NCBI GenBank assembly: GCA_000004695.1
Contig: CM000153.2
Location: forward strand, 2,688,001-2,752,000
Source of the DNA: Dictyostelium discoideum
Lineage: Eukaryota
Reading direction: 5' to 3'
DNA: 64,000 bases
Below, piece after piece: positions 40,422 through 61,460 of this stretch. A program made the position numbers and the translations under genes. Numbering within the stretch: position 1 is the stretch's first letter; every line of letters starts with the position of its first letter. The notes below the pieces were generated by a model, which saw nothing but the letters and a program-made list of their open reading frames with translations, was not told the origin of the DNA and did not search any database.

Positions 40422-43002
40422 CAAAAACATGAAATAAAAATAAAATAAAAGAAAATTAGAAAATAATAATTAATAATTATTCAAAATTAATATAATACAA
40501 ACATTTTCAGTTTTAAACTTTTCAACAATTTTTTTAAATTGTTGTTTTGAATGAGATTGTTGGAATTGAATATCAGAAGGTGGTAAAGTTAATAATAGTT
40601 CATCCATTTTTGTGTAGTATTCAATTAATGGTTTGAATTTGAGATCAATTAAAAAGTTTACATAGATTTCCAAATTTTCTTTAAAAATTGATTGAGAGGT
40701 ATCTTTATGTTGAGTTAGACAATTGATATTAAGTTCTTGTAATTTCAAATAAAAGAAATAATGATTCTCAAGTTTTGAAATGAATTTGTATTTTTTATCC
40801 TCTGGTAATTTCTCTACCAAACCATCCAACCAATTAAATAGCTCTAATATGATCTTCTTATAGGATGATTCAATTAAAAGAGTGCTTGAACCAGTGTCTG
40901 ATTCAGATTTATACTTTTGTAATTCTTTAACAAAGATATGAAAATTTCTAAAATGTGGTAAAACACCACATCTCTTTAAAGAGGTTTGAGTTGACTTAAT
41001 TGCATCAACTTGAACTTCTAAAAATTTGTTGAATAAAGTTTTTATACTTTTTTGTACCTCTGCCAAAATCTTTACAAAATATGAAGAATGATGAGAATCT
41101 TTACGTGAATGAGCGTCAATATATAACTCTGTTTCAAGTAACATTGTTAAAAGATAGAATGGATTAACTTGATCAGCTTTTTCAACCATATTTATTAATT
41201 CTGGTACAACTCCATTAAACATTGCACTTAATATTAAATCCAATGGTGCATCTGGTGATTCTTTAGGTGGTGGTGGTGGTGGTGGTGGTGGTGATGATTC
41301 TTCTGTTGATGATAATGAGCCATTGACTGCATTATTTGGAGATTTTGGACTATTTGAATCAATTGGTTTATCATTATCCAATGAAGGTGATGATGATGAA
41401 TCTGGATCTTTTTTTTTTTTATCTTTTTTATCTTTTTTATCTTTTTTATCTTTTTTATCTTTTTTACTTGATTTTTTATCTTTTCTATCCTTACCATCTT
41501 TATTACTACCACTACCACCACCACTACTATTTGAATGATGATTACGTTGACCAGCTAGTCTTGGTGGGTCTTGATATAAAAAGAAATCCATTACAAAATT
41601 TTGTTTTGTCATTATATAAATTTCTAAACAAGATAATGCATATTTAAATAATCTATTGATTTTACGTTTTTTAATACCATCTTTGCCACTACTACTACTA
41701 CTACTACTACTACTATTTTTAGATGGTGTACTTGTTGATGTATTGTTATTTAAACTATCAATTGATTTCTTTGATGAAGATGAAGAAGAAAAGAAATCAT
41801 TTTGATCCTTTGATTCTTTTTCTAATGACTGTTGAATAGTTGAAAAGAAAAGTTTAATATCACTTTCATAAATTCGACGAAATGCTTTAATATAAGAAAC
41901 AATCAATGGGATTAACTTTTCATGATCCATCTCTTTCAACCAATTAACCAATGGTTTAAATTTTCTTAAAAGGTCATAGTATTCCAAGTAATCTGGAAAC
42001 TTTTCTTCACCGGGTGTTTGAGATGTTGTTGTGATGACATGTTTACCAATTTCCTTATCAGTGGTTTTAAATATATTTTCAACCAATGCTGCGACCTTTC
42101 TTGCAAATGAGATTTTATAAGTTTCAAATACCTTTCTTTGATCTTTAACAGCCATCATATTATCCATACCACTCTTTAATTTGGTTGTTAATGCACGTTT
42201 TAAATCTTCAGCTGCTTCAATTGCCATCTTTAATCCCTTGGTATCGTTAAATTGTGGTGCTGTTAGTGTGGAAATTGTGTTGTCTGATAAAGTCATTAAC
42301 CCAATTAAATTATTCAATTCAGAGTATAATAACTTTTGATTTCTTGATACAATCTCCATCTTATTATTCTTTCCTTCAATATGTTCAATATATTTCTTCA
42401 TATCTTGTAATTGTTTATTATAATACTCAATCCATGCCGTCACACCTGTTAAATGTGTACCATCTTTATCACCTAATTGACTTATAACTTCATTAACTCC
42501 AACACCTGAATCTAAAACACCAACAATCATTTCCTTTAAAAAAAAAAAAAAAAAAAAAAAAAATTATTAATTATTAATTATTATAAAATAAAAATTTATT
42601 TTATTATATAATTTAACATACAGTTTCTAAAGTTGATAACGTTTTACCTAAACGTTCAGTTAAAATATCAACATCTTTTTCAAATGAGAGATAATTATTA
42701 ATAACATTTTCTAAATCTTCATCACCATCATTATTTCCCAAACTAGTTGCACTACTACTTAGAGTATTGTTTGATGGACCATTGCTTACATTATCATTCG
42801 ATTGTGATAGAAATGATGGGTACTCAAGTATTGGGATATTACTATGATGGTGATTTTCACTATCACTCTCTGAATGTGTGGTTTCTGATGGATCGTATTC
42901 ACTCTCACTATATTGACTATATCTATCACTAAATTGACCGCTATATCTATTATGTTGAATACCCACTCTACTAATACCACCTGAATATCCAAGATGATCC
43001 AT
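40155..43002 (-). CDS. exoc1: Exocyst complex component Sec3 (EXOC1)-like, 3 exons. There is no N-terminal PH (PIP2-binding) domain in this locus.
   Basis: complement(join(40155..40382,40503..42533,42622..43002)), with a GTATGT donor (42621) and a GTTTGT donor (40502). Similarity to human EXOC1 is direct: GVLPHFRNFHIFVKELQ vs GILPFVAEFEEFAGLAE; the terminal exon QLILVIWERLEEVFIEKYEHFQDITSDCY vs [28 protein letters not shown]; and the N-terminal coiled coil EDLENVINNYLSFEKDVDILTERL..NKQLQDMKKYIEHIEGKNNKMEIVSRNQKLLYSELNNLIGLM vs [47 protein letters not shown].. There is an internal S-rich/KDKKDKK low-complexity insert. The last intron's acceptor follows a 45-nt poly-A tract, which is unusual. 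Confidence 0.65.
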
Positions 43003-43378: not shown

Positions 43379-47364
<3,986 letters not shown>

Positions 47365-47506: not shown

Positions 47507-48730
47507 TTATGACAATGATAATCTATTTAAAAGTGTTAAAACTTCAGAAGAACTTTCAACAACACCTCTTGCTTTTGTTGATTCTTCAAGATCACCACAA
47601 ACACGAATTGTAAATGATGGTACATTATAAAGTGCTTTAAACATATCTTCATCAGTTTTATCATCACCAATACAAAGTATGAAATCTGCATCAATCTTTT
47701 GAAGGATCATTTTTACTATTTCACCTTTATTGATACCTATTGGTTTAACTTCAATTGCTTTCTTTCCTGATAAAATATCCAATGGGTATTTATTTGCGAC
47801 TGAACGAAGTTGTGCAATCAATTCTTTAGCTTGGAATTGACCAAAGTCTGGATCAGCATTTCTATAATGCCATGTGATATTGACTTGTTTAGTTTCTGTC
47901 ATTGAACCTGGTGTTCTATCTTCAAAATCTTGCATTATTGATAAAACTGTGTCTTTCCATTGAACTTCTGCATTTGGACTTTCAGTCCATGGTTGATTTT
48001 CACCAGGTTGTCTTGTGAAAACGCCATGTTCACAAGACATACCAATTGGTAAATGACCTAACCACTTCTCCAATGACGAACGATCTCTTCCACTGATTAC
48101 GTAAACTTCATTTCTTCTATCTTCTGTTAGTTTACTTAAAACATCAATTAATTGCTTTGATGGCATTGCTTGACTTGGAAGACGAACCAATGGTGTTAAA
48201 GTACCATCATAATCCAAAAAGAAAACTCTAACCTTTGCTTTTTTATAGGAATCTTCAATCTCTTGGAAATTGGCCCTTGGTACACTTGTTTCCATAATCT
48301 CTTTTTGTGTTGCTTCATTTAAATCACATAAGAATCTTTTACCCCAAAAACTTGATGTGTTTGCCAAAACATAATTATAATTGATTTGATGTTTTAATTT
48401 TCTATCATGCATACTCATATTCAATGCTTCAATGATAGCTTCCATTATTTCTTTCTTTGAGAATGGATTAACGATTATTGAACCACCTAAACATCTTGCT
48501 GCACCTGCAAATTCACTTAATATCAATACACCAAAGTTATCCTTTTGACATACAACATATTCATGTGAAGTTAAATTCATACCATCTCTAATTGGTGTTA
48601 TTAATGCAATATCTGCCAATTTATATAATGCTGATAATTCTTCATATGATATTTTCTTATTAATATATTCAATTGGATTAAAACTTAATTTACCAAATTT
48701 ACCATTAATTCTACCAACCATTCTATAATA

Positions 48731-48772
<42 letters not shown>

Positions 48773-49979
48773 TTAGTAATTAAAATATGAAAAAAAAAAT
48801 AAATAAATAAATAAATAAATACTCATTAACAGTTTTATGTAAAATCTTTTGTTCATCAGTTTCATCACCTTCTTCAACAGTTGGTTCATAAATTTGAATA
48901 AAAACTAATTTACCAATATATTCTGGATGATCATTTAATAATTGTTCAAAGACTTCAAGTTTTCTTGGTACACCTTCAATTTGATCTAATCTATCACGAG
49001 CTACAACAACCTTTTTACCTTTGAAAATTTTACGTAAACTTTCAACTCTTGATGAAACTTCAGGTAAATTTAAATTCTTTGCAAAATCATTATAATCAAC
49101 ACCGATTGGATAAACTTGAAGTTTAGTGAAATGAGTTGAACCATCTTCAAATATCTCTAAACCTTTTGGATGAACTTCAAGATCTAATAAACGAGCACAA
49201 GAACTTTTGAAATGACGTACATATTCAAATGATTGAAAACCAATTAAATTTGATGAAAGGATACCTTTTAATAATTCTTTTCTATTTGGAAGTATACGAA
49301 ATAGTTCATAGGAAGGAAATGGTGCATGGAAAAAGAAACCAATCGATGCCTCTGGTGGTAGCAATTGTCTTAACATTTGTGGTACCAACATAAGATGATA
49401 ATCATGAATCCAAATGATATCGGATGGTCTCCATACGGATGCGATCTTTTCGGCAAACATTTGATTTACTCCAACGTATTCTTCCCACCATTCAGATTGC
49501 ATACGAATAAAGTTCATTTGATAATGTAATAATAACCATAATCCATTTTTACAATAACCTTTGTAATAGTTTTCAAACTGTCTTGGATTTAGAAAAACAT
49601 GTTCAAAATGTGGTGAAAATTCTTTAATGGCCTGATTTAACATTGGCTCTTCATCTTCATTAACCTCACAATGTGACCAACCAATCCATAGCCAATCTTC
49701 AATTTCATCTTTTGCCTTTAAAGTTTCTAAAGCAGATTGAGTTGGAAATGGATGACCATTGATTTGAATTTGAATTTTACTTTCTCTATCTCTTGATGGT
49801 TCTGACATACCAAAACTACTTGTTATTGATTCTCTACTTGCACTTAATGGCGATCCAAATAATGGGGTTTCATTAAATTTTGTAACTGTAATTGGTAATG
49901 TATTACTTGCAACAATAATTTTACCTAATTTTTCATTAATAATATTATTTAAACTTGTTGACCTTTGAATTATGGTCAT
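47507..49979 (-). CDS. Bifunctional alpha,alpha-trehalose-phosphate synthase (UDP-forming, GT20) / trehalose-6-phosphate phosphatase (HAD domain), 2 exons.
   Basis: complement(join(47507..48710,48823..49979)), with a GTATTT donor at 48822 and an acceptor ..TGGTTGGTAG. The splice gives ..TVNE|INGKFGKLSFNPIEY, as in TPS proteins (vnGrfg...PI.y). The GT20 signature is IWIHDYHLMLVPQMLRQ, with DGMNLTSHEYVVCQ. The TPP HAD motif is VFFLDYDGTLTP, followed by ILCIGDDKTDEDMF. Confidence 0.9.
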
Positions 49980-50669: not shown

Positions 50670-53600
50670 TTAATAAAAATCTTGATCTAAAGCCAATTGA
50701 GAGAATAATTTTTTAGTTTGTTCTTGAGATTTTTTAAAATCTTTCCATTGATTTAAGAGAGCGATTTCATCATCAACAATATTTGATAAAGGAGTATTTG
50801 CTAAGGATTGATGATTCTTTGGAGCTTGATAATCTTGAGTGATATTTGTGATAGAGAATAACGATTTTTCATCAGGAGCCAATAGTCTAGCAATGAATTG
50901 ATCAGAGGTTGGTCTTGGTAATTTATTAATCCATTGGTCAATGATTGATTCAAAGGAAGCCAAAAGACTTGAACTTGAAGATCTAAATTCGAATCTAGCA
51001 TGGTAAACCTTATACTTTGGTAAACTTTGACCATTTGGAGAGGTATAATAGATACTGTAATCCTCTGGGAATGATAAGCATTTCTCCATACCAGAGATTG
51101 TGAAACAAAATTGTTCATTGAACCAAGTTGAAGAAGAGAATGCAAAATGGAAATTTGAATTACCAAATTCACTATTTAAAACATTATGCAATGGTAAAGC
51201 ACTTAGGCAATCAAAGATTGAAGCAACAGAAACGAAACCTTCAAATACAACATCAATTGAAAACACAGCTTCAAATCTTGGCCATTGTTGAATGAATTGA
51301 TGTTTATTATATTTAAATGGAATTAAAAATTGATTCCAATCAAAAATATAATCTGAACATCTAATTTCAATAGGTGAGAATTGAATAATATTTGCACTTG
51401 GGTTATTAGTTGTAATTGATAATGATTGAATAATTTGATTATTAATAATTGGTTGATTTATACCTGATCCAACTATACTATTTAAATTTGTATGTGAATT
51501 TGGATTTGGATTTGGATTTGTTGATGATGATGATGATGTAGTATTATTATTTGAATTTGTAGTTGATGATGGTGTTGTTGTTGAGGTTATTTGATTAGCA
51601 TTTGATGATGATGATGATGATGACGATATAATATTTTGATTAATAACATTTGATAATGGTGAAGAAGTTGTTGGTGAAGAACTTTGAGCGTTTGATAAAA
51701 GTGAAGAAGATATAAAACTAGCAGTACCAGGTGAACCAACTGCACTAGTTGAAATCGAATGACTATTTGCACTACTATTTAAACTACCACTATTATTTGA
51801 ATTTAAACTATATGATGATAAACCAGAATTAACACTTGAAATTGGTTGTGGTTGGTATTGTTGTTGTTGTGATTGTTGTGATTGTTGTTGTGATGATGAT
51901 TGTTGTTGTTGTTGTTGTTGTTGAATTGATTGAACTAATAATTGATCAGAAGATTGTTGATAATTATTAATTTTAGTATGAATATTATTTAAATTAATAT
52001 TATTTTCAGATTCACAAAGACCACTTGGTTGATTAAAAGTTAATTTAAAAGTAACTAAATTATAATCTAAACTTGAAACATTTAGAGGTACTTCGAAACT
52101 ATAAGATTTCTCTGGTAAAAGTTTTGGAATATTATGTTTACAATTGGTTTGAGGATAAGGGAAATCCAAATGACCAGATAATCCAATCATTATATTTACA
52201 TTTTTAATACTAAAATGAATGACATTTGTAACTTGAACATGTAAAGTGATGGTATTTAATGTTGGATGAGTTGTATGACTAACTTCAATCCAAACTGGAT
52301 CACTTGCACCACTAATTAAAGTCACATCTCTTGATGATTTATCACGAATTGATGAACCATAATGCACACCAACCAAACCAGTGATTGCTTTCTTACATTC
52401 GTATGCAAAAATATCGGAAATCGAGTGAAGTGAATTCGAGGCCTCCAACTGTTCAATTGGGATACAATATGAGAAATCGATGGTATAATTGGTAAAGCTA
52501 TTTAAATTTCTAATTGTACTATATTTTCCAAGTGATTGTGCATCCAATGCACTACTGGTACTTGAGAATAACATTCTACGAATGAAACGTGCACGTGAAT
52601 AAACCGATTTATTATGAGGATAAGTTGCCAATATCTCCTCGAGTGTACGTTGAACCGTTGCTTCAACCGATGGAATATGTAACCCCATTAGATAAAGACA
52701 CTCCAAAGCACCCAACCAATAGCCACTTAATGAGTGAAGTGATGCAGGTGATACTCTACCAAATTGCGATACACCCATAATCATATCCCTAATGTTACCA
52801 TTGTATTGAGTGAACTTTGGTTGATTATCCAAGAAAAGGAAACGACGTCTTAATAAACTAATTAATAAACCTGCATCTGATTGTTCATAAACTTTATTTG
52901 TTGGTGATCTTAATAAATGTGTACAAATTAAGAATACTGCTTGTAGGCAAATATAATCTGATGGTATCTTATTAATTTGATCTAATAAATCACTACGTAA
53001 TAATGATATTAATTTTATACCATATTGTGATTCACTACCATTACCACTATTATTGCTGCTGCTGCTGCTTGATAAAGTTACTCTACATAACCAATCAACA
53101 AATCTAATACAATATTCAATTGCTGAAATTCTTTCACTTTGCCATGTAATACATTTCAAACAAACCTCTGAAATATTTAATGCAGCTTGATGTAAATAAA
53201 ATAAATTACCAGATGTTGAGAATTTAACTGAACCACCACTACCACCACCACTATTGCCACTGCTGCTATTGTTATTGTTTGAATTTTTCTCTGATTCAAT
53301 TTCAATATATTTTGAAAGAATATTATGATGACTTGCAACCATTGATACGATTATTTCTTCACGGAAACTACTAGATTCATCTTGAAAAGCCATTAAAAGA
53401 CAATCGGTTGTCATTAATGGTGTAAATAATGAACTTTTACCAGAGGATGTAACATGTCTATCAATTATTAATTCAAAGGTACGAATTAAATAACTAACAC
53501 GTTGATTTGAATCTGTTATGGATTTTATTGATGGGAAAATACGACTAAGTGTACAAAATAATAAATCATCACCCAACATTGGTAAAACACTCATAATCGC

Positions 53601-53981
53601 CAATAGAATAGGTAGTGGATTTAATGATACACCTTCTCTACGTAACAGACCAATGAATGCAGTTAACACTGGATTAATCCAATTTTCATTATGTTGATTT
53701 TGTTGAGTTAATAATAGATCCAATATTGCTTTACCAACTGCAAATACCAATGAATCATTTGATGAATCTAATTGTGATAAAAAGTATTCAACCAATATTG
53801 ATACAATATTTTGTGGTGATGAAATTTGTTTAGTTTTATTTGATGATGCTGTATTTGCTATTATTGATGTTGGTGATGTTGGTGATGTTATTGGTGAATT
53901 ACCTGTTGTCGTAGTTGTTGTAGTTGTACCTGTAATTGATGATAAATTCATTGATGATATACCATTTATTAAATTATTTTG

Positions 53982-54071
<90 letters not shown>

Positions 54072-54984
54072 TTGTTGATTATTATTATTATTATTATTAT
54101 TATCAAAACTTGTTGGCCAAAATGGTGTACCACTTGATCTTGAAATTGTATCAACTAAATAAGTTAAAGTATTTACAGTTGAATGACGTTGATTAATATC
54201 AATATGTTGAGCACGATTAAGTAATAGATCGAAATGATCAATTAATTTCAAAGAGATCCAATCGGCATAATAAGAGAGTACTTGTCTCTTTTGTACACTA
54301 TTATCCAATTCATCAGAATGTGAAACTGATCTTGAGATCTCAGAGAATAATGAACTGATTGCACTAAAACTTGATTGGTAAACCATTGGTATTGGTTCCT
54401 CTAAAATTCTATCAACTATTAACTCCCAACCTGTCGATACAAATGATTTATATGATTGAAGAATTGATTTTCTATAAAATAATAAACTTGTCAATGTATC
54501 CAATGCTGTTTTTCTAACTGATGGATTACCATGTCTAACCAATGGTCCAAAATCTGCATTTCCCATCATTAATAACTCTGTAAATATTGATGAAATGTGT
54601 GGTAATGTCTTTAAAATACTAATCACAACTTCATTATCATCGGAATTTAAATCTTTTACTAATAATGGTATTGCTAAACTCCAATCTGATGGTGTACATT
54701 TACAACTTTTTAAAATACTATAACATAATATTCTTGTTGTTTTATTATCAGTTTCTGATATTAACTAAAAAAGTAAAAAAATAATATTAATATTAATATT
54801 TAATATAATTTGTATTATTAAATTTTAAAAAAAAAAAAAAAAAAAAACTTACTTTAATAATTGAAGTAAAAAATAAAGTTGGATCTCTTCCTTGATTAAT
54901 CCAAAACTGATTTAATTTTGACAAACCATTAATTTGTTTTAATGAATCACTACTATTTAATTCATCATAAATTTCAATCTCCAT
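50670..54984 (-). CDS. TPLATE-like large subunit of the TSET (TPLATE) membrane-trafficking complex, 2 exons and about 1,408 aa.
   Basis: complement(join(50670..54764,54853..54984)), with a GTAAGT donor at 54852 and a ..TTTTTTAG acceptor. The N-terminus aligns with Arabidopsis TPLATE: MEIEIYDELNSSDSLKQINGLSKL..SDWSLAIPLLVKDLNSDDNEVVISILKTLP vs MDILFAQIQADLRSNDALRQSGAL..PDLWDTVCSGVKTDLHFPDPDVTAAAVSILAAIP. A C-terminal beta-sandwich block aligns strongly: LISGASDPVWIEVSHTTHPTLNTITLHVQVTNVIHFSIKNVNIMIGLSGHLDF vs LTGSSDPCYIEAYHLADTNDGRVTLHLKIINLTELELNRVDIRVGLSGALYF. It has a long coding (ATT)n poly-N insert at about 54000-54060 and a Q/S-rich tract at about 51800-51960. Confidence 0.65.
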
Positions 54985-55035: not shown

Positions 55036-55081
<46 letters not shown>

Positions 55082-55089
55082 CCTTAAGG

Positions 55090-55123
<34 letters not shown>

Positions 55124-55511: not shown

Positions 55512-56490
<979 letters not shown>

Positions 56491-56547
<57 letters not shown>

Positions 56548-58968: not shown

Positions 58969-60039
58969 TTTTTTTTTTTTTTTTTTTTATTTGTTATTTT
59001 TAATTTTTAATTTTTTTATTTTTTATTTTTATATTTTATTTTTTATTTTTATATTTTAAATCTTAAAAAAAAATGGTTACTAACCACTCCCCCCATTTTT
59101 TTAAAAAAAAAAAAAAAAAAATGAAAAAAAATAAAAATAAAAATAAAAAAGTTATCAAAATTATCAAGAAGAAAAGAAGATCAAATTGCAAATAAAGATG
59201 AAAAAGGAAATGGAGTTAGTGATAGTTCAAATACGTCATCAAATAAAATTAACAAAGGAAACGTTATCAATAGTAGAAAAAGTAGGGATCAGTGTTTAAT
59301 AAATTAAATTCTCAAAATTTTATTAAAAAAAAAAATTCATCTTTTAATTTATTATTTTAATTTTATTTTTTTTAAATTTTTTTATTTTTTTTTTTTTATT
59401 TTTTTTTTTTTTAATTTTATTTTTTTTTTTTTTTTTTTAAATTTTAAATTTTCTTTTTTTTTGAGTCTTTCTAACACTTAACATATAATTAATTCATATA
59501 AAAAAAAACAAATAAAAAAAAAAAAAATAAACAAATAAAAAAAAAAAAAAAAGGTAAATAATAAATAAAATGACAAATAAAATAAAGAGTATATAAAAAG
59601 TTTAAATATTTAAAAAAAAAAAAAAAAAAAAAAAGAGTTATAAAAAAAGTTAAAAAAAAATAAAAATTAAAATAAAATAATTAAGATAATATAACACTAC
59701 ACATAAACTTTTTTAAAACGCACACTCACACTAGCATATTAATGCTAACACAATATTAATGTAACACCATAACTTTTTTTTTTTTTTTTTTTTTAATTTT
59801 ATTTTTATTTTTTTATTTTTATTTTTTTTTTTTTATTTTTTTAAAATTACATAAAACAATTTTTTTTTATTTTTTTTTTTTTAATTTTTAATTTTTATAT
59901 CAACAACACATAATTATATAGCCATAGATAAATAGATTAATAAGTAGAGTTATATTAATATATTATTATTTATCATCAGTAATAAAAATAGTAGCAGAAG
60001 TGTAATAGAGTAATAAAGTATTATTGTTGAAGAAAAAGG

Positions 60040-60082
<43 letters not shown>

Positions 60083-60098
60083 AAAAATAATAATAATT

Positions 60099-60169
<71 letters not shown>

Positions 60170-60188
60170 TAAATTATTTTGTAATTTT

Positions 60189-61460
60189 ATGTCTCCATAT
60201 GCACCAGAAAATAATCAGGACCCTGGTGGAGGTCTTGTAACAGAAGGAAACCAACCACAACAAAACAATTTTGTAAATACTAACAAATCCCCAACAACTA
60301 CACCACCACCACAAACTAGTAACGTAGTTAGTACACCACCAGCAACAGCCATTAATGCAGCAGGTGTAAATAATGGTTTAATTAATGGGGTTTTAAATAA
60401 TTCCTCTTCTTCTTCCTCCTCCTCTTCTTCTTCCTCTTCCTCATCACCAACACCAACTTCAATATCACCACCATTATCTGATATTGAACAAACATTAAAT
60501 GCATATCCAACTGATTTACCTGAATTGGTTGTAGCAGCATGTTGGTGGGCAGAATCTTTGGGAAAGTTAAATATGAACATACCAAAAGAGAATATAAAAC
60601 GTTTCCGTAAAGAACTCATTTTTGCTCTTCGTGATAGAATAAAAGGCCATTGGTATCCAGATTACCCAGAACGTGGTCAAGGTTATCGTGCAATCATTTG
60701 TGAAGAAACAACCGATAGATTATTAATGGATGCTGCAAAGAAATCCGATATTGTCGGTGAATTTAGACAATTGGTAAAACAAAATACTACCATGTGGATT
60801 GATCCTGGTAATGTTACCTATCGTCATGGTAAACATTATGAAAAAACTTTATATCCATTTAATAGTATCAACAACCACTATAGTCACCACAACAACAACA
60901 ACAACAACAACAATGGTATTAATATTACCAATAGTAACAATACTATACCAATTAATACAAGTGGTTATCATAACATCAATAATCATTTAAACAATAGTAA
61001 TAATACAATCCCACCTCAACAATCTCAACAACATATAAATAATAATAATAACAATAGTAATAACAATACCACCAATAATATAATTTTAAATAGTTTACAT
61101 CATCACCAAACCCAAATTTCTCAACAACATTTAAATAATAATAATAATCAAAACAACTTTTCATATGGAATTACATCAACAAGACTCACCCAAAACGTTG
61201 TAAATAGTAATAGTAATGGTCTTAATGGTAGAGTTTCATCACCATCCCTTTCATCCACTGCACCTGTATTTTCTCCTTCAAATTCTATGTATCATCATGT
61301 CCAACAACAATCTCATTCACCTTCAATTTCTCCACCTGCTTCTCCATCCAAAGATCTTGGTAACAGTAGCGGTAACAATACAAATGTATATTCTTCAAAC
61401 AATAATCTTTTCTATAATTCAAATACTTCATCTTCAAAAATAAAACTTGCATATTCTTAA
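60189..61460 (+). CDS. BTG/Tob anti-proliferative family protein, with a long N/S/Q-rich C-terminal tail.
   Basis: The true start is probably the ATG at 60189 (MSPYAPENN..). The track ORF start at 60024 lies in poly-A. The BTG box is LPELVVAACWWAESLGKLNMNIPKENIKRFRKELIFALRDRIKGHWYPDYPERGQGYRAIICEETTDRLLMDAAKKSDIVGEFRQLVKQNTTMWIDPGNVTYRHGKHYEKTLYP. This matches the family consensus (..F...L...L....HWfPe.P.kGsgYRCIri....d..i..A...sgl....l..LP.eltlWvDP.eV..R.GE). Confidence 0.7.
   Translation: MSPYAPENNQDPGGGLVTEGNQPQQNNFVNTNKSPTTTPPPQTSNVVSTPPATAINAAGVNNGLINGVLNNSSSSSSSSSSSSSSSPTPTSISPPLSDIEQTLNAYPTDLPELVVAACWWAESLGKLNMNIPKENIKRFRKELIFALRDRIKGHWYPDYPERGQGYRAIICEETTDRLLMDAAKKSDIVGEFRQLVKQNTTMWIDPGNVTYRHGKHYEKTLYPFNSINNHYSHHNNNNNNNNGINITNSNNTIPINTSGYHNINNHLNNSNNTIPPQQSQQHINNNNNNSNNNTTNNIILNSLHHHQTQISQQHLNNNNNQNNFSYGITSTRLTQNVVNSNSNGLNGRVSSPSLSSTAPVFSPSNSMYHHVQQQSHSPSISPPASPSKDLGNSSGNNTNVYSSNNNLFYNSNTSSSKIKLAYS

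Follow-up and report, generated by a model that had tools for sequence, protein, structure and literature searches.

The gene located at positions 50670-54984 on the minus strand of the analysed 64-kb stretch of Dictyostelium discoideum DNA (contig CM000153.2, positions 2,688,001 to 2,752,000; hereafter the window) is almost certainly the D. discoideum TPLATE gene, encoding the beta-adaptin-like large subunit of the TSET complex. The D. discoideum TPLATE was described by Hirst et al. (2014, eLife 3:e02866, PMC4031984) as XP_639969.1, a protein of 1408 aa. The degapped '>DdisTPLATE' row of the untrimmed alignment in Supplementary file 1 of that study begins with 613 and ends with 795 residues that are those of our gene model, and this match of 1408 of 1408 residues, exon 1/exon 2 junction included, identifies the window protein as the published DdTPLATE. 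The window is thus the genomic locus of XP_639969.1, with no difference in sequence or length. The exact 1408-aa sequence was not found in a collection of 15 billion proteins, though it equals this RefSeq entry; the nearest protein there, of 95% identity, comes from another D. discoideum assembly.

The finding itself is already known, as the gene, its name, its membership in TSET and its correct gene model have been published or annotated. The ancient origin of TSET, its loss from animals and fungi, and the phenotype of a knockout of the complex were also reported by Hirst et al. (PMC4031984). The usefulness of this gene for structural and functional comparisons of TSET, proposed in a reading of the window made from sequence alone (the sequence-only reading), is therefore no fresh angle, the Dictyostelium complex having been characterised in 2014. 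Our analysis adds a precise domain map, in which low-complexity inserts are assigned to a loop of the trunk and to the linker between the sandwich and the platform of the appendage, evidence that these inserts are fast-evolving repeat expansions, and a tail helix common to Dictyostelium and plants. The last of these would inform the design of truncations and mutagenesis in either organism.

The single gene, with its ATG at 54984-54982, consists of the following elements:

54984-54853, minus strand: exon 1, 132 nt, 44 codons (MEIEI...TSIIK) including the start codon; codes for the N-terminal end of the trunk, which is conserved
54852-54765, minus strand: the only intron, 88 nt, GTAAGT...TTTTAG, 5.7% GC
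54764-50670, minus strand: exon 2, 4095 nt, 1364 codons and a TAA stop at 50670-50672

The spliced coding sequence of 4227 nt has a lone stop codon at its end and gives a protein of 1408 aa, while without splicing the reading frame is closed by a stop 20 codons inside the intron. The GC content of the intron (5.7%), of the flanking intergenic DNA (8-9%) and of the exons (22-29%) agrees with the two-exon structure, and the coordinates of the region and of the 54853/54764 junction given by the sequence-only reading proved exact. About 60-130 nt upstream of the ATG (window 55040-55110, minus strand), in intergenic DNA of about 9% GC, the coding strand carries very long homopolymer A runs. Long A runs in AT-rich intergenic DNA are typical of Dictyostelium promoters.

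The small first exon had been suspected of mis-annotation, but it is correctly annotated. It is part of the published 1408-aa model, and its 44-residue peptide is kept in five other dictyostelid orthologues (P0002-P0006). In the family alignment, the peptide aligns with the N-termini of TPLATEs of plants (Selaginella), Anaeramoeba, Balamuthia and others, and the hhalign alignment to plant-type TPLATEs begins at residue 3, that is, inside exon 1. The orthologue of Dictyostelium firmibasis is likewise split by a GT..AG intron, of 76 nt, located at the same codon as that of D. discoideum. Between D. firmibasis and the window, exon 1 is 97% and exon 2 is 96% identical, as compared to 59% for the intron and 60% for the upstream region. 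The public models of the orthologues of Cavenderia fasciculata (P0007, 1110 aa) and Heterostelium album (P0009, 826 aa) do not contain the exon-1 peptide, and the latter is far shorter than its relatives. It is these two models, and not that of D. discoideum, that look truncated or mis-annotated at the N-terminus.

Results of our sequence comparisons support the orthology of the window protein to the TPLATEs of plants and other organisms, and not to the beta subunits of adaptor protein (AP) complexes or of COPI. A HMMER scan of 1.84 billion representative proteins with a dictyostelid profile (E ≤ 1e-3) gave only 56 matches, and names were looked up for 20 of them. Descriptive names were attached to six of the 20, all TPLATE or TSET, among them Selaginella moellendorffii 'protein TPLATE' (E 1.1e-29), Mastigamoeba balamuthi 'TSET complex, TPLATE subunit', and two Anaeramoeba proteins, each of a different species, named 'tset complex member tsta' (tstA). 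One further match, P0009 (EFA76832.1), is the PpalTPLATE of Hirst et al., and the rest of those looked up have no descriptive name and belong to Balamuthia, Vermistella, Closterium, Chlorokybus, Mantamonas or Pyxidicula, or are unidentified transcriptome or metagenome records. No adaptin or coatomer name was present among the 20 looked-up matches. The comparison by hhalign with an alignment of plant-type TPLATEs gave a probability of 100% and an E value of 1.2e-54 over 905 columns, with collinearity along query positions 3-966. In BLASTP, three collinear matches to Selaginella TPLATE (XP_002985757.1, 1149 aa) were obtained: one in the trunk (19% identity, E 2e-10), one in the appendage sandwich (37% over 52 aa, E 2e-9), and one in the appendage platform (20% over 167 aa, E 1e-7). 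The overall identity to this plant protein is about 18% of aligned columns, and that of Dictyostelium to plant TPLATE was given by Hirst et al. (PMC4031984) as 14.63%.

The best relatives outside dictyostelids are thus TPLATE or TSET proteins, which bears out the assignment to TPLATE, and not to an AP beta or gamma adaptin, made by the sequence-only reading. When homologues of the full protein were sought in a word index, with scoring confined to the 8000 candidates that had most words in common with it, dictyostelid orthologues only were returned; we suspect that words of poly-N and poly-Q filled these 8000 places. Repeated with an alignment of five orthologues stripped of low-complexity regions, the search again found dictyostelids only; the family is too divergent to have 5-residue words in common with plant TPLATEs.

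That we are dealing not with TPLATE but with a diverged beta or gamma adaptin of an AP complex, or with a paralogue of beta-COP, has in our opinion a probability close to nil. Pfam does give only the generic Adaptin_N family and weak matches to Coatamer_beta_C and Coatomer_b_Cpla, and the predicted platform structurally resembles the appendages of AP and COPI subunits, but such resemblance is expected within the superfamily. The scanned library contains many AP and COPI subunits, and none of them appeared among the 56 proteins drawn from its 1.84e9, of which the named ones are TPLATE or TSET. Searches of all PDB sequences, including the large subunits of AP1-4 and COPI, with the protein or the profile detected no adaptin or COPI chain at E ≤ 1; only low-complexity or chance matches were obtained, and no TPLATE-family structure was detected. 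The hhalign alignment to TPLATEs, with its E value of the order of 1e-54, is full-length, and separate D. discoideum genes of beta-COP and AP beta subunits are listed in the supplement of Hirst et al. A strong, full-length similarity to AP or COPI subunits was not observed; the Adaptin_N match, of 43 bits, extends over no more than positions 12-261 of the 524 of the Pfam model, about half of its length. As a yardstick, the beta1 subunits of AP-1 of D. discoideum and Arabidopsis are 58% identical (Hirst et al. 2014, PMC4031984).

The architecture of this TPLATE is that of an alpha-solenoid trunk of Adaptin_N type, followed by a bipartite appendage composed of a beta-sandwich and a platform, and by a tail that ends in a conserved helix:

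52371-54764, minus strand: beta-adaptin-like alpha-solenoid trunk, exon-2 part (aa 45-842; the trunk begins with aa 1 in exon 1), assigned by Pfam Adaptin_N and hhalign
53805-54137, minus strand: insert 1 (aa 254-364) in a trunk loop, poly-N (40 AAT codons) and then T-rich and S/P-rich
52035-52370, minus strand: appendage beta-sandwich (aa 843-954), assigned by its motif, Coatamer_beta_C, AlphaFold2 (AF2) strands and BLASTP
51369-51980, minus strand: insert 2 (aa 973-1176) between the sandwich and the platform, 204 aa, poly-Q and then S/N/T-rich
50883-51374, minus strand: appendage platform (aa 1175-1338), with a predicted structure resembling AP and COPI appendages and a BLASTP identity of 20% to Selaginella
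50673-50882, minus strand: C-terminal tail (aa 1339-1408), with a helix predicted at aa 1372-1405
50682-50783, minus strand: predicted tail helix (aa 1372-1405), with the motif DDEIALLNQWKDFKK, LLNQW, and W1384

The Adaptin_N domain was recognised by Pfam at aa 8-399 of the window protein (E 2.5e-11, 43.3 bits vs. a cut-off of 37), with an E value of 4.6e-14 when low-complexity regions were stripped, as well as in all five dictyostelid orthologues. The sandwich motif pointed out by the sequence-only reading corresponds to aa 861-912 (window 52161-52316), ISGASDPVWIEVSHTTHPTLNTITLHVQVTNVIHFSIKNVNIMIGLSGHLDF, and is 37% identical (E 2e-9) to the segment LSGSSDPCYVEAYHLSDPHEKRLTLHLKVINMTELELNRVDVRVGLVGALRF of Selaginella TPLATE. 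Its pattern, SDP...H...TLH...N...GL.G.L, is conserved across the TPLATE family alignment, and the likeness to TPLATE that had been noticed in it is real, although our comparison was made with the Selaginella and not the Arabidopsis protein. The Pfam family Coatamer_beta_C is sub-threshold in the window protein (E 1.1e-3) and matches five of the five dictyostelid orthologues (best E 1.9e-5). An AF2 prediction with 10 sequences, for a C-terminal fragment of 629 aa that included the low-complexity insert, gave an all-beta fold of seven strands across the sandwich stretch, with a predicted local distance difference test score (pLDDT) of 57-75 in the core and of 43-49 at fragment residues 131-140 and 161-170. 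This all-beta model is of moderate confidence; with the Coatamer_beta_C matches in the orthologues and the conserved motif, it makes aa 843-954 the counterpart of the appendage sandwich, the support being weaker than that for the platform. While a beta-sandwich is indeed indicated, its description as C-terminal does not hold: the platform and the 83-aa tail that ends the protein come after the large Q/S-rich insert, and the sandwich is consequently the first half of a bipartite appendage split by this insert.

Evidence contradicting the identification as the TPLATE subunit of TSET was not found, and the points that weigh against it are limits. Names were looked up for 20 of the 56 family matches, and the plant comparison was made with Selaginella TPLATE, the Arabidopsis sequence not having been returned by our searches. 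For the trunk fold the evidence is that of Pfam and hhalign. Confidence in the model of the sandwich is low, the 629-aa fragment having a mean pLDDT of 41.6. A Foldseek search with this fragment, which we regard as uninformative, retrieved beta-sandwiches of a generic kind (for example, arrestins and SadB); a COPI leaf chain ranked 5th and the beta2 appendage 33rd. Finally, the membership in the complex and the function of the protein come from the literature and not from the window.

As described in the literature, six subunits, namely TPLATE, TSAUCER, TCUP, TSPOON and two TTRAYs, make up the heterohexameric TSET, which forms a coat or adaptor related to AP complexes and COPI (PMC4031984). 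In D. discoideum, XP_639969.1 co-precipitates with TSPOON fused to green fluorescent protein (TSPOON-GFP) and is roughly equimolar to TSAUCER, TCUP, TTRAY1 and TTRAY2; the fusion protein is in part associated with the plasma membrane, as indicated by puncta in total internal reflection fluorescence microscopy and by its presence in the membrane pellet (PMC4031984). Knockout of TSPOON slows down the internalisation of plasma membrane but is not lethal and affects neither growth nor development (PMC4031984). The remaining subunits were identified by Hirst et al. (PMC4031984) as XP_640471.1 (TSAUCER), XP_629998.1 (TCUP), DDB_G0350235 (TSPOON), and XP_642289.1 and XP_637150.1 (TTRAYs). None of the other TSET subunits was present among the eight neighbouring open reading frames (ORFs) scanned in the window.

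Plant TPLATE binds the medium subunit through its trunk (Yperman et al. 2021, PMC7909872), while the appendage and tail are an interaction hub for the scaffold subunits, which contain WD40 and solenoid domains, and are needed for assembly (PMC7909872). By analogy, Dictyostelium TPLATE would play the same structural role, with its trunk placed in the heterotetrameric core beside TCUP and its appendage and tail docking the TTRAY scaffold. The plant proteins (Arabidopsis NP_186827.2 and Selaginella XP_002985757.1) and that of Dictyostelium are alike in the collinear order of trunk, sandwich, platform and tail, in the sandwich motif, and in a terminal helix motif composed of a hydrophobic residue and LQxW. 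Besides the low identity of about 18%, they differ in the low-complexity inserts of about 320 aa in Dictyostelium, in other extra segments in plants, and in the lysine-rich, charged 'anchor' of the latter (PMC7909872). The plant complex has, in addition, two EH/Pan1 subunits and a mu-homology domain on its medium subunit (PMC7909872), and it is essential, whereas Dictyostelium TSET is dispensable (PMC4031984, PMC7909872). The beta-COP and the beta1-beta4 subunits of AP complexes belong to the same superfamily and likewise combine a solenoid trunk of Adaptin_N type with an appendage made of a sandwich and a platform, but they are parts of other complexes and are not detectable by sequence with the window protein or the family profile. 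Their canonical appendages possess neither a long linker between the sandwich and the platform nor a C-terminal tail helix.

The predicted tail helix (residues 208-241 of another modelled fragment) has a pLDDT of 89-92 around its motif, the variants of which are LLNQW in Dictyostelium, VLQEW in streptophytes, VIQRW in Mantamonas, VQSRW in Balamuthia, and VLREW in Micromonas. The corresponding segments near the C-terminus read AVLQEWNLFH in Selaginella, AVLQEWNALR in Closterium, NVIQRWKEIRK in Mantamonas and FVQSRWRQLKE in Balamuthia, and EMLQKWQKNR and EMLQRWQALK in two unnamed family members (P0022 and P0026, respectively). The same columns of the alignment of Hirst et al. (2014, PMC4031984) contain AVLREWKALAA of Micromonas and AVALWEAARAQ of Thecamonas. 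A regular expression for this motif matched 11 of 23 non-dictyostelid tails, as compared to 0.54 expected from shuffled sequences, a contrast inflated by the post hoc choice of the pattern. The region of TPLATE that follows the appendage, named the anchor, was called plant-specific by Yperman et al. (2021, PMC7909872). The occurrence of the motif outside plants suggests that the terminal helix of this anchor is ancestral. The motif columns are aligned in the supplement of Hirst et al. (2014), and we found no discussion of them in the texts consulted. The chances appear to us to be even that the core of the tail is ancestral, a short amphipathic helix with a hydrophobic-L-Q-x-W motif that constitutes a pan-eukaryotic TSET feature, probably an element for docking of the scaffold (TTRAY/TWD40), and that the appendage tolerates a disordered linker of 220 residues.

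The D. discoideum protein exceeds the 1176-aa TPLATE of Arabidopsis (NP_186827.2; Hirst et al. 2014, PMC4031984, Fig. 3 source data) by 232 aa, in agreement with the difference of about 230 residues stated in the sequence-only reading. The attribution of this extra length to poly-N and Q/S-rich inserts was correct as to its source but not as to its size, since the inserts amount to about 320 aa; extra segments of about 115 aa, found in plant TPLATEs, offset part of this and reduce the net difference. D. discoideum has 324 extra residues relative to Acytostelium and 373 relative to Selaginella, which has 114 of its own. The poly-N run was also rightly described as ATT-encoded, as its 40 AAT codons read ATT on the plus strand, while the large Q/S-rich insert, described as interior, sits more exactly within the appendage, at the sandwich-platform junction. 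In a family alignment of 15 species, the linker from sandwich to platform comprises 220 aa in D. discoideum, 146 in Polysphondylium violaceum, 23 in Acytostelium, and 5-58 in other lineages. The segment of the trunk insert is 100 aa long in D. discoideum, as against 8-25 aa in every compared species except Closterium, the count for which (163) may be an artefact, its N-terminal region being missing from the alignment. Insert 1 is absent from dictyostelids of groups 2-4, and insert 2 has an AF2 pLDDT below 50 throughout and is predicted to be disordered. Relative to the protein of a second D. discoideum isolate (P0001, 1391 aa), the window protein has 5 substitutions and no gaps in its 1015 ordered residues, but 34 substitutions and 39 gap positions in its 393 low-complexity residues; the poly-N run of that isolate is 21 residues shorter than in the window. 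The location of the inserts at sites of short loops in other proteins of the family, their absence or shortness in other dictyostelids and their variable length between isolates make it most likely that they are tolerated repeat expansions in disordered surface loops, and not functional modules.

Two other explanations of the inserts were considered. The tracts could be unrecognised introns or an assembly artefact, in which case the true protein would be shorter. This might be suggested by the AT-richness of Dictyostelium introns, the low GC content of the poly-AAT tract, and the short loops found at both sites in other lineages. However, both tracts are in frame and free of stops over 333 and 612 nt, they are made of repeats of codons (AAT, CAA, TCA), and their GC content (19.5% in insert 1 and 27.9% in insert 2) is coding-like, compared with 5.7% in the real intron and 8-9% in intergenic DNA. 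Homologous tracts of differing length are present in independent assemblies, namely those of the other D. discoideum isolate, D. firmibasis, D. purpureum and P. violaceum, and the changes of length between isolates preserve the frame. Reading frame, GC content and conservation together rule out hidden introns, and this explanation is accordingly highly improbable. A functional role of the Q/N/S-rich inserts, for instance as prion-like or condensate-forming regions that replace in Dictyostelium TSET the disordered EH/Pan1 subunits by which condensation of the plant complex is driven, is somewhat less improbable but still unlikely. The large insert lies within the appendage, which in the plant complex is the interaction hub (PMC7909872), a linker of variable length is present at the sandwich-platform site in every lineage, and the plant TPLATE complex depends on disordered AtEH subunits (PMC7615741), which Dictyostelium TSET does not have (PMC7909872). 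Nevertheless, Acytostelium, with a linker of 23 aa, and other Amoebozoa, with one of 19-41 aa, all but lack the inserts, and no other part of the protein changes as fast between isolates of one species. Moreover, low-complexity tracts are pervasive in D. discoideum proteins. Tolerated repeat expansion thus remains the most likely origin of both inserts.

Besides the TPLATE gene, the 40-62 kb part of the window contains the following ORFs, assigned by Pfam:

40470-42530, minus strand: homologue of exocyst Sec3
44742-45905, plus strand: ORF with a Vps54_N match
60024-61460, plus strand: protein of the BTG family

The presence of two trafficking genes at less than 15 kb from TPLATE is probably a coincidence. 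Directly downstream of TPLATE (47507-49979, minus strand) lies a gene for a trehalose-6-phosphate synthase/phosphatase fusion protein with GT20 and Trehalose_PPase domains, which in the window takes the form of two ORFs, probably separated by a short intron near 48722-48779. In D. firmibasis, too, this gene lies downstream of TPLATE (L001 7641-10078), indicating that the gene order is conserved. Upstream of TPLATE, at 55512-55811 (minus strand), there is a small ORF with an S/T-rich stretch and a C-terminal zinc ribbon, CPSCQ...CIRCG (Zn_Ribbon_1, E 7e-5). It is preceded farther upstream, at 56028-56492 (minus strand), by an ORF that contains a poly-N tract and has no Pfam match, and both ORFs may be exons of one gene.

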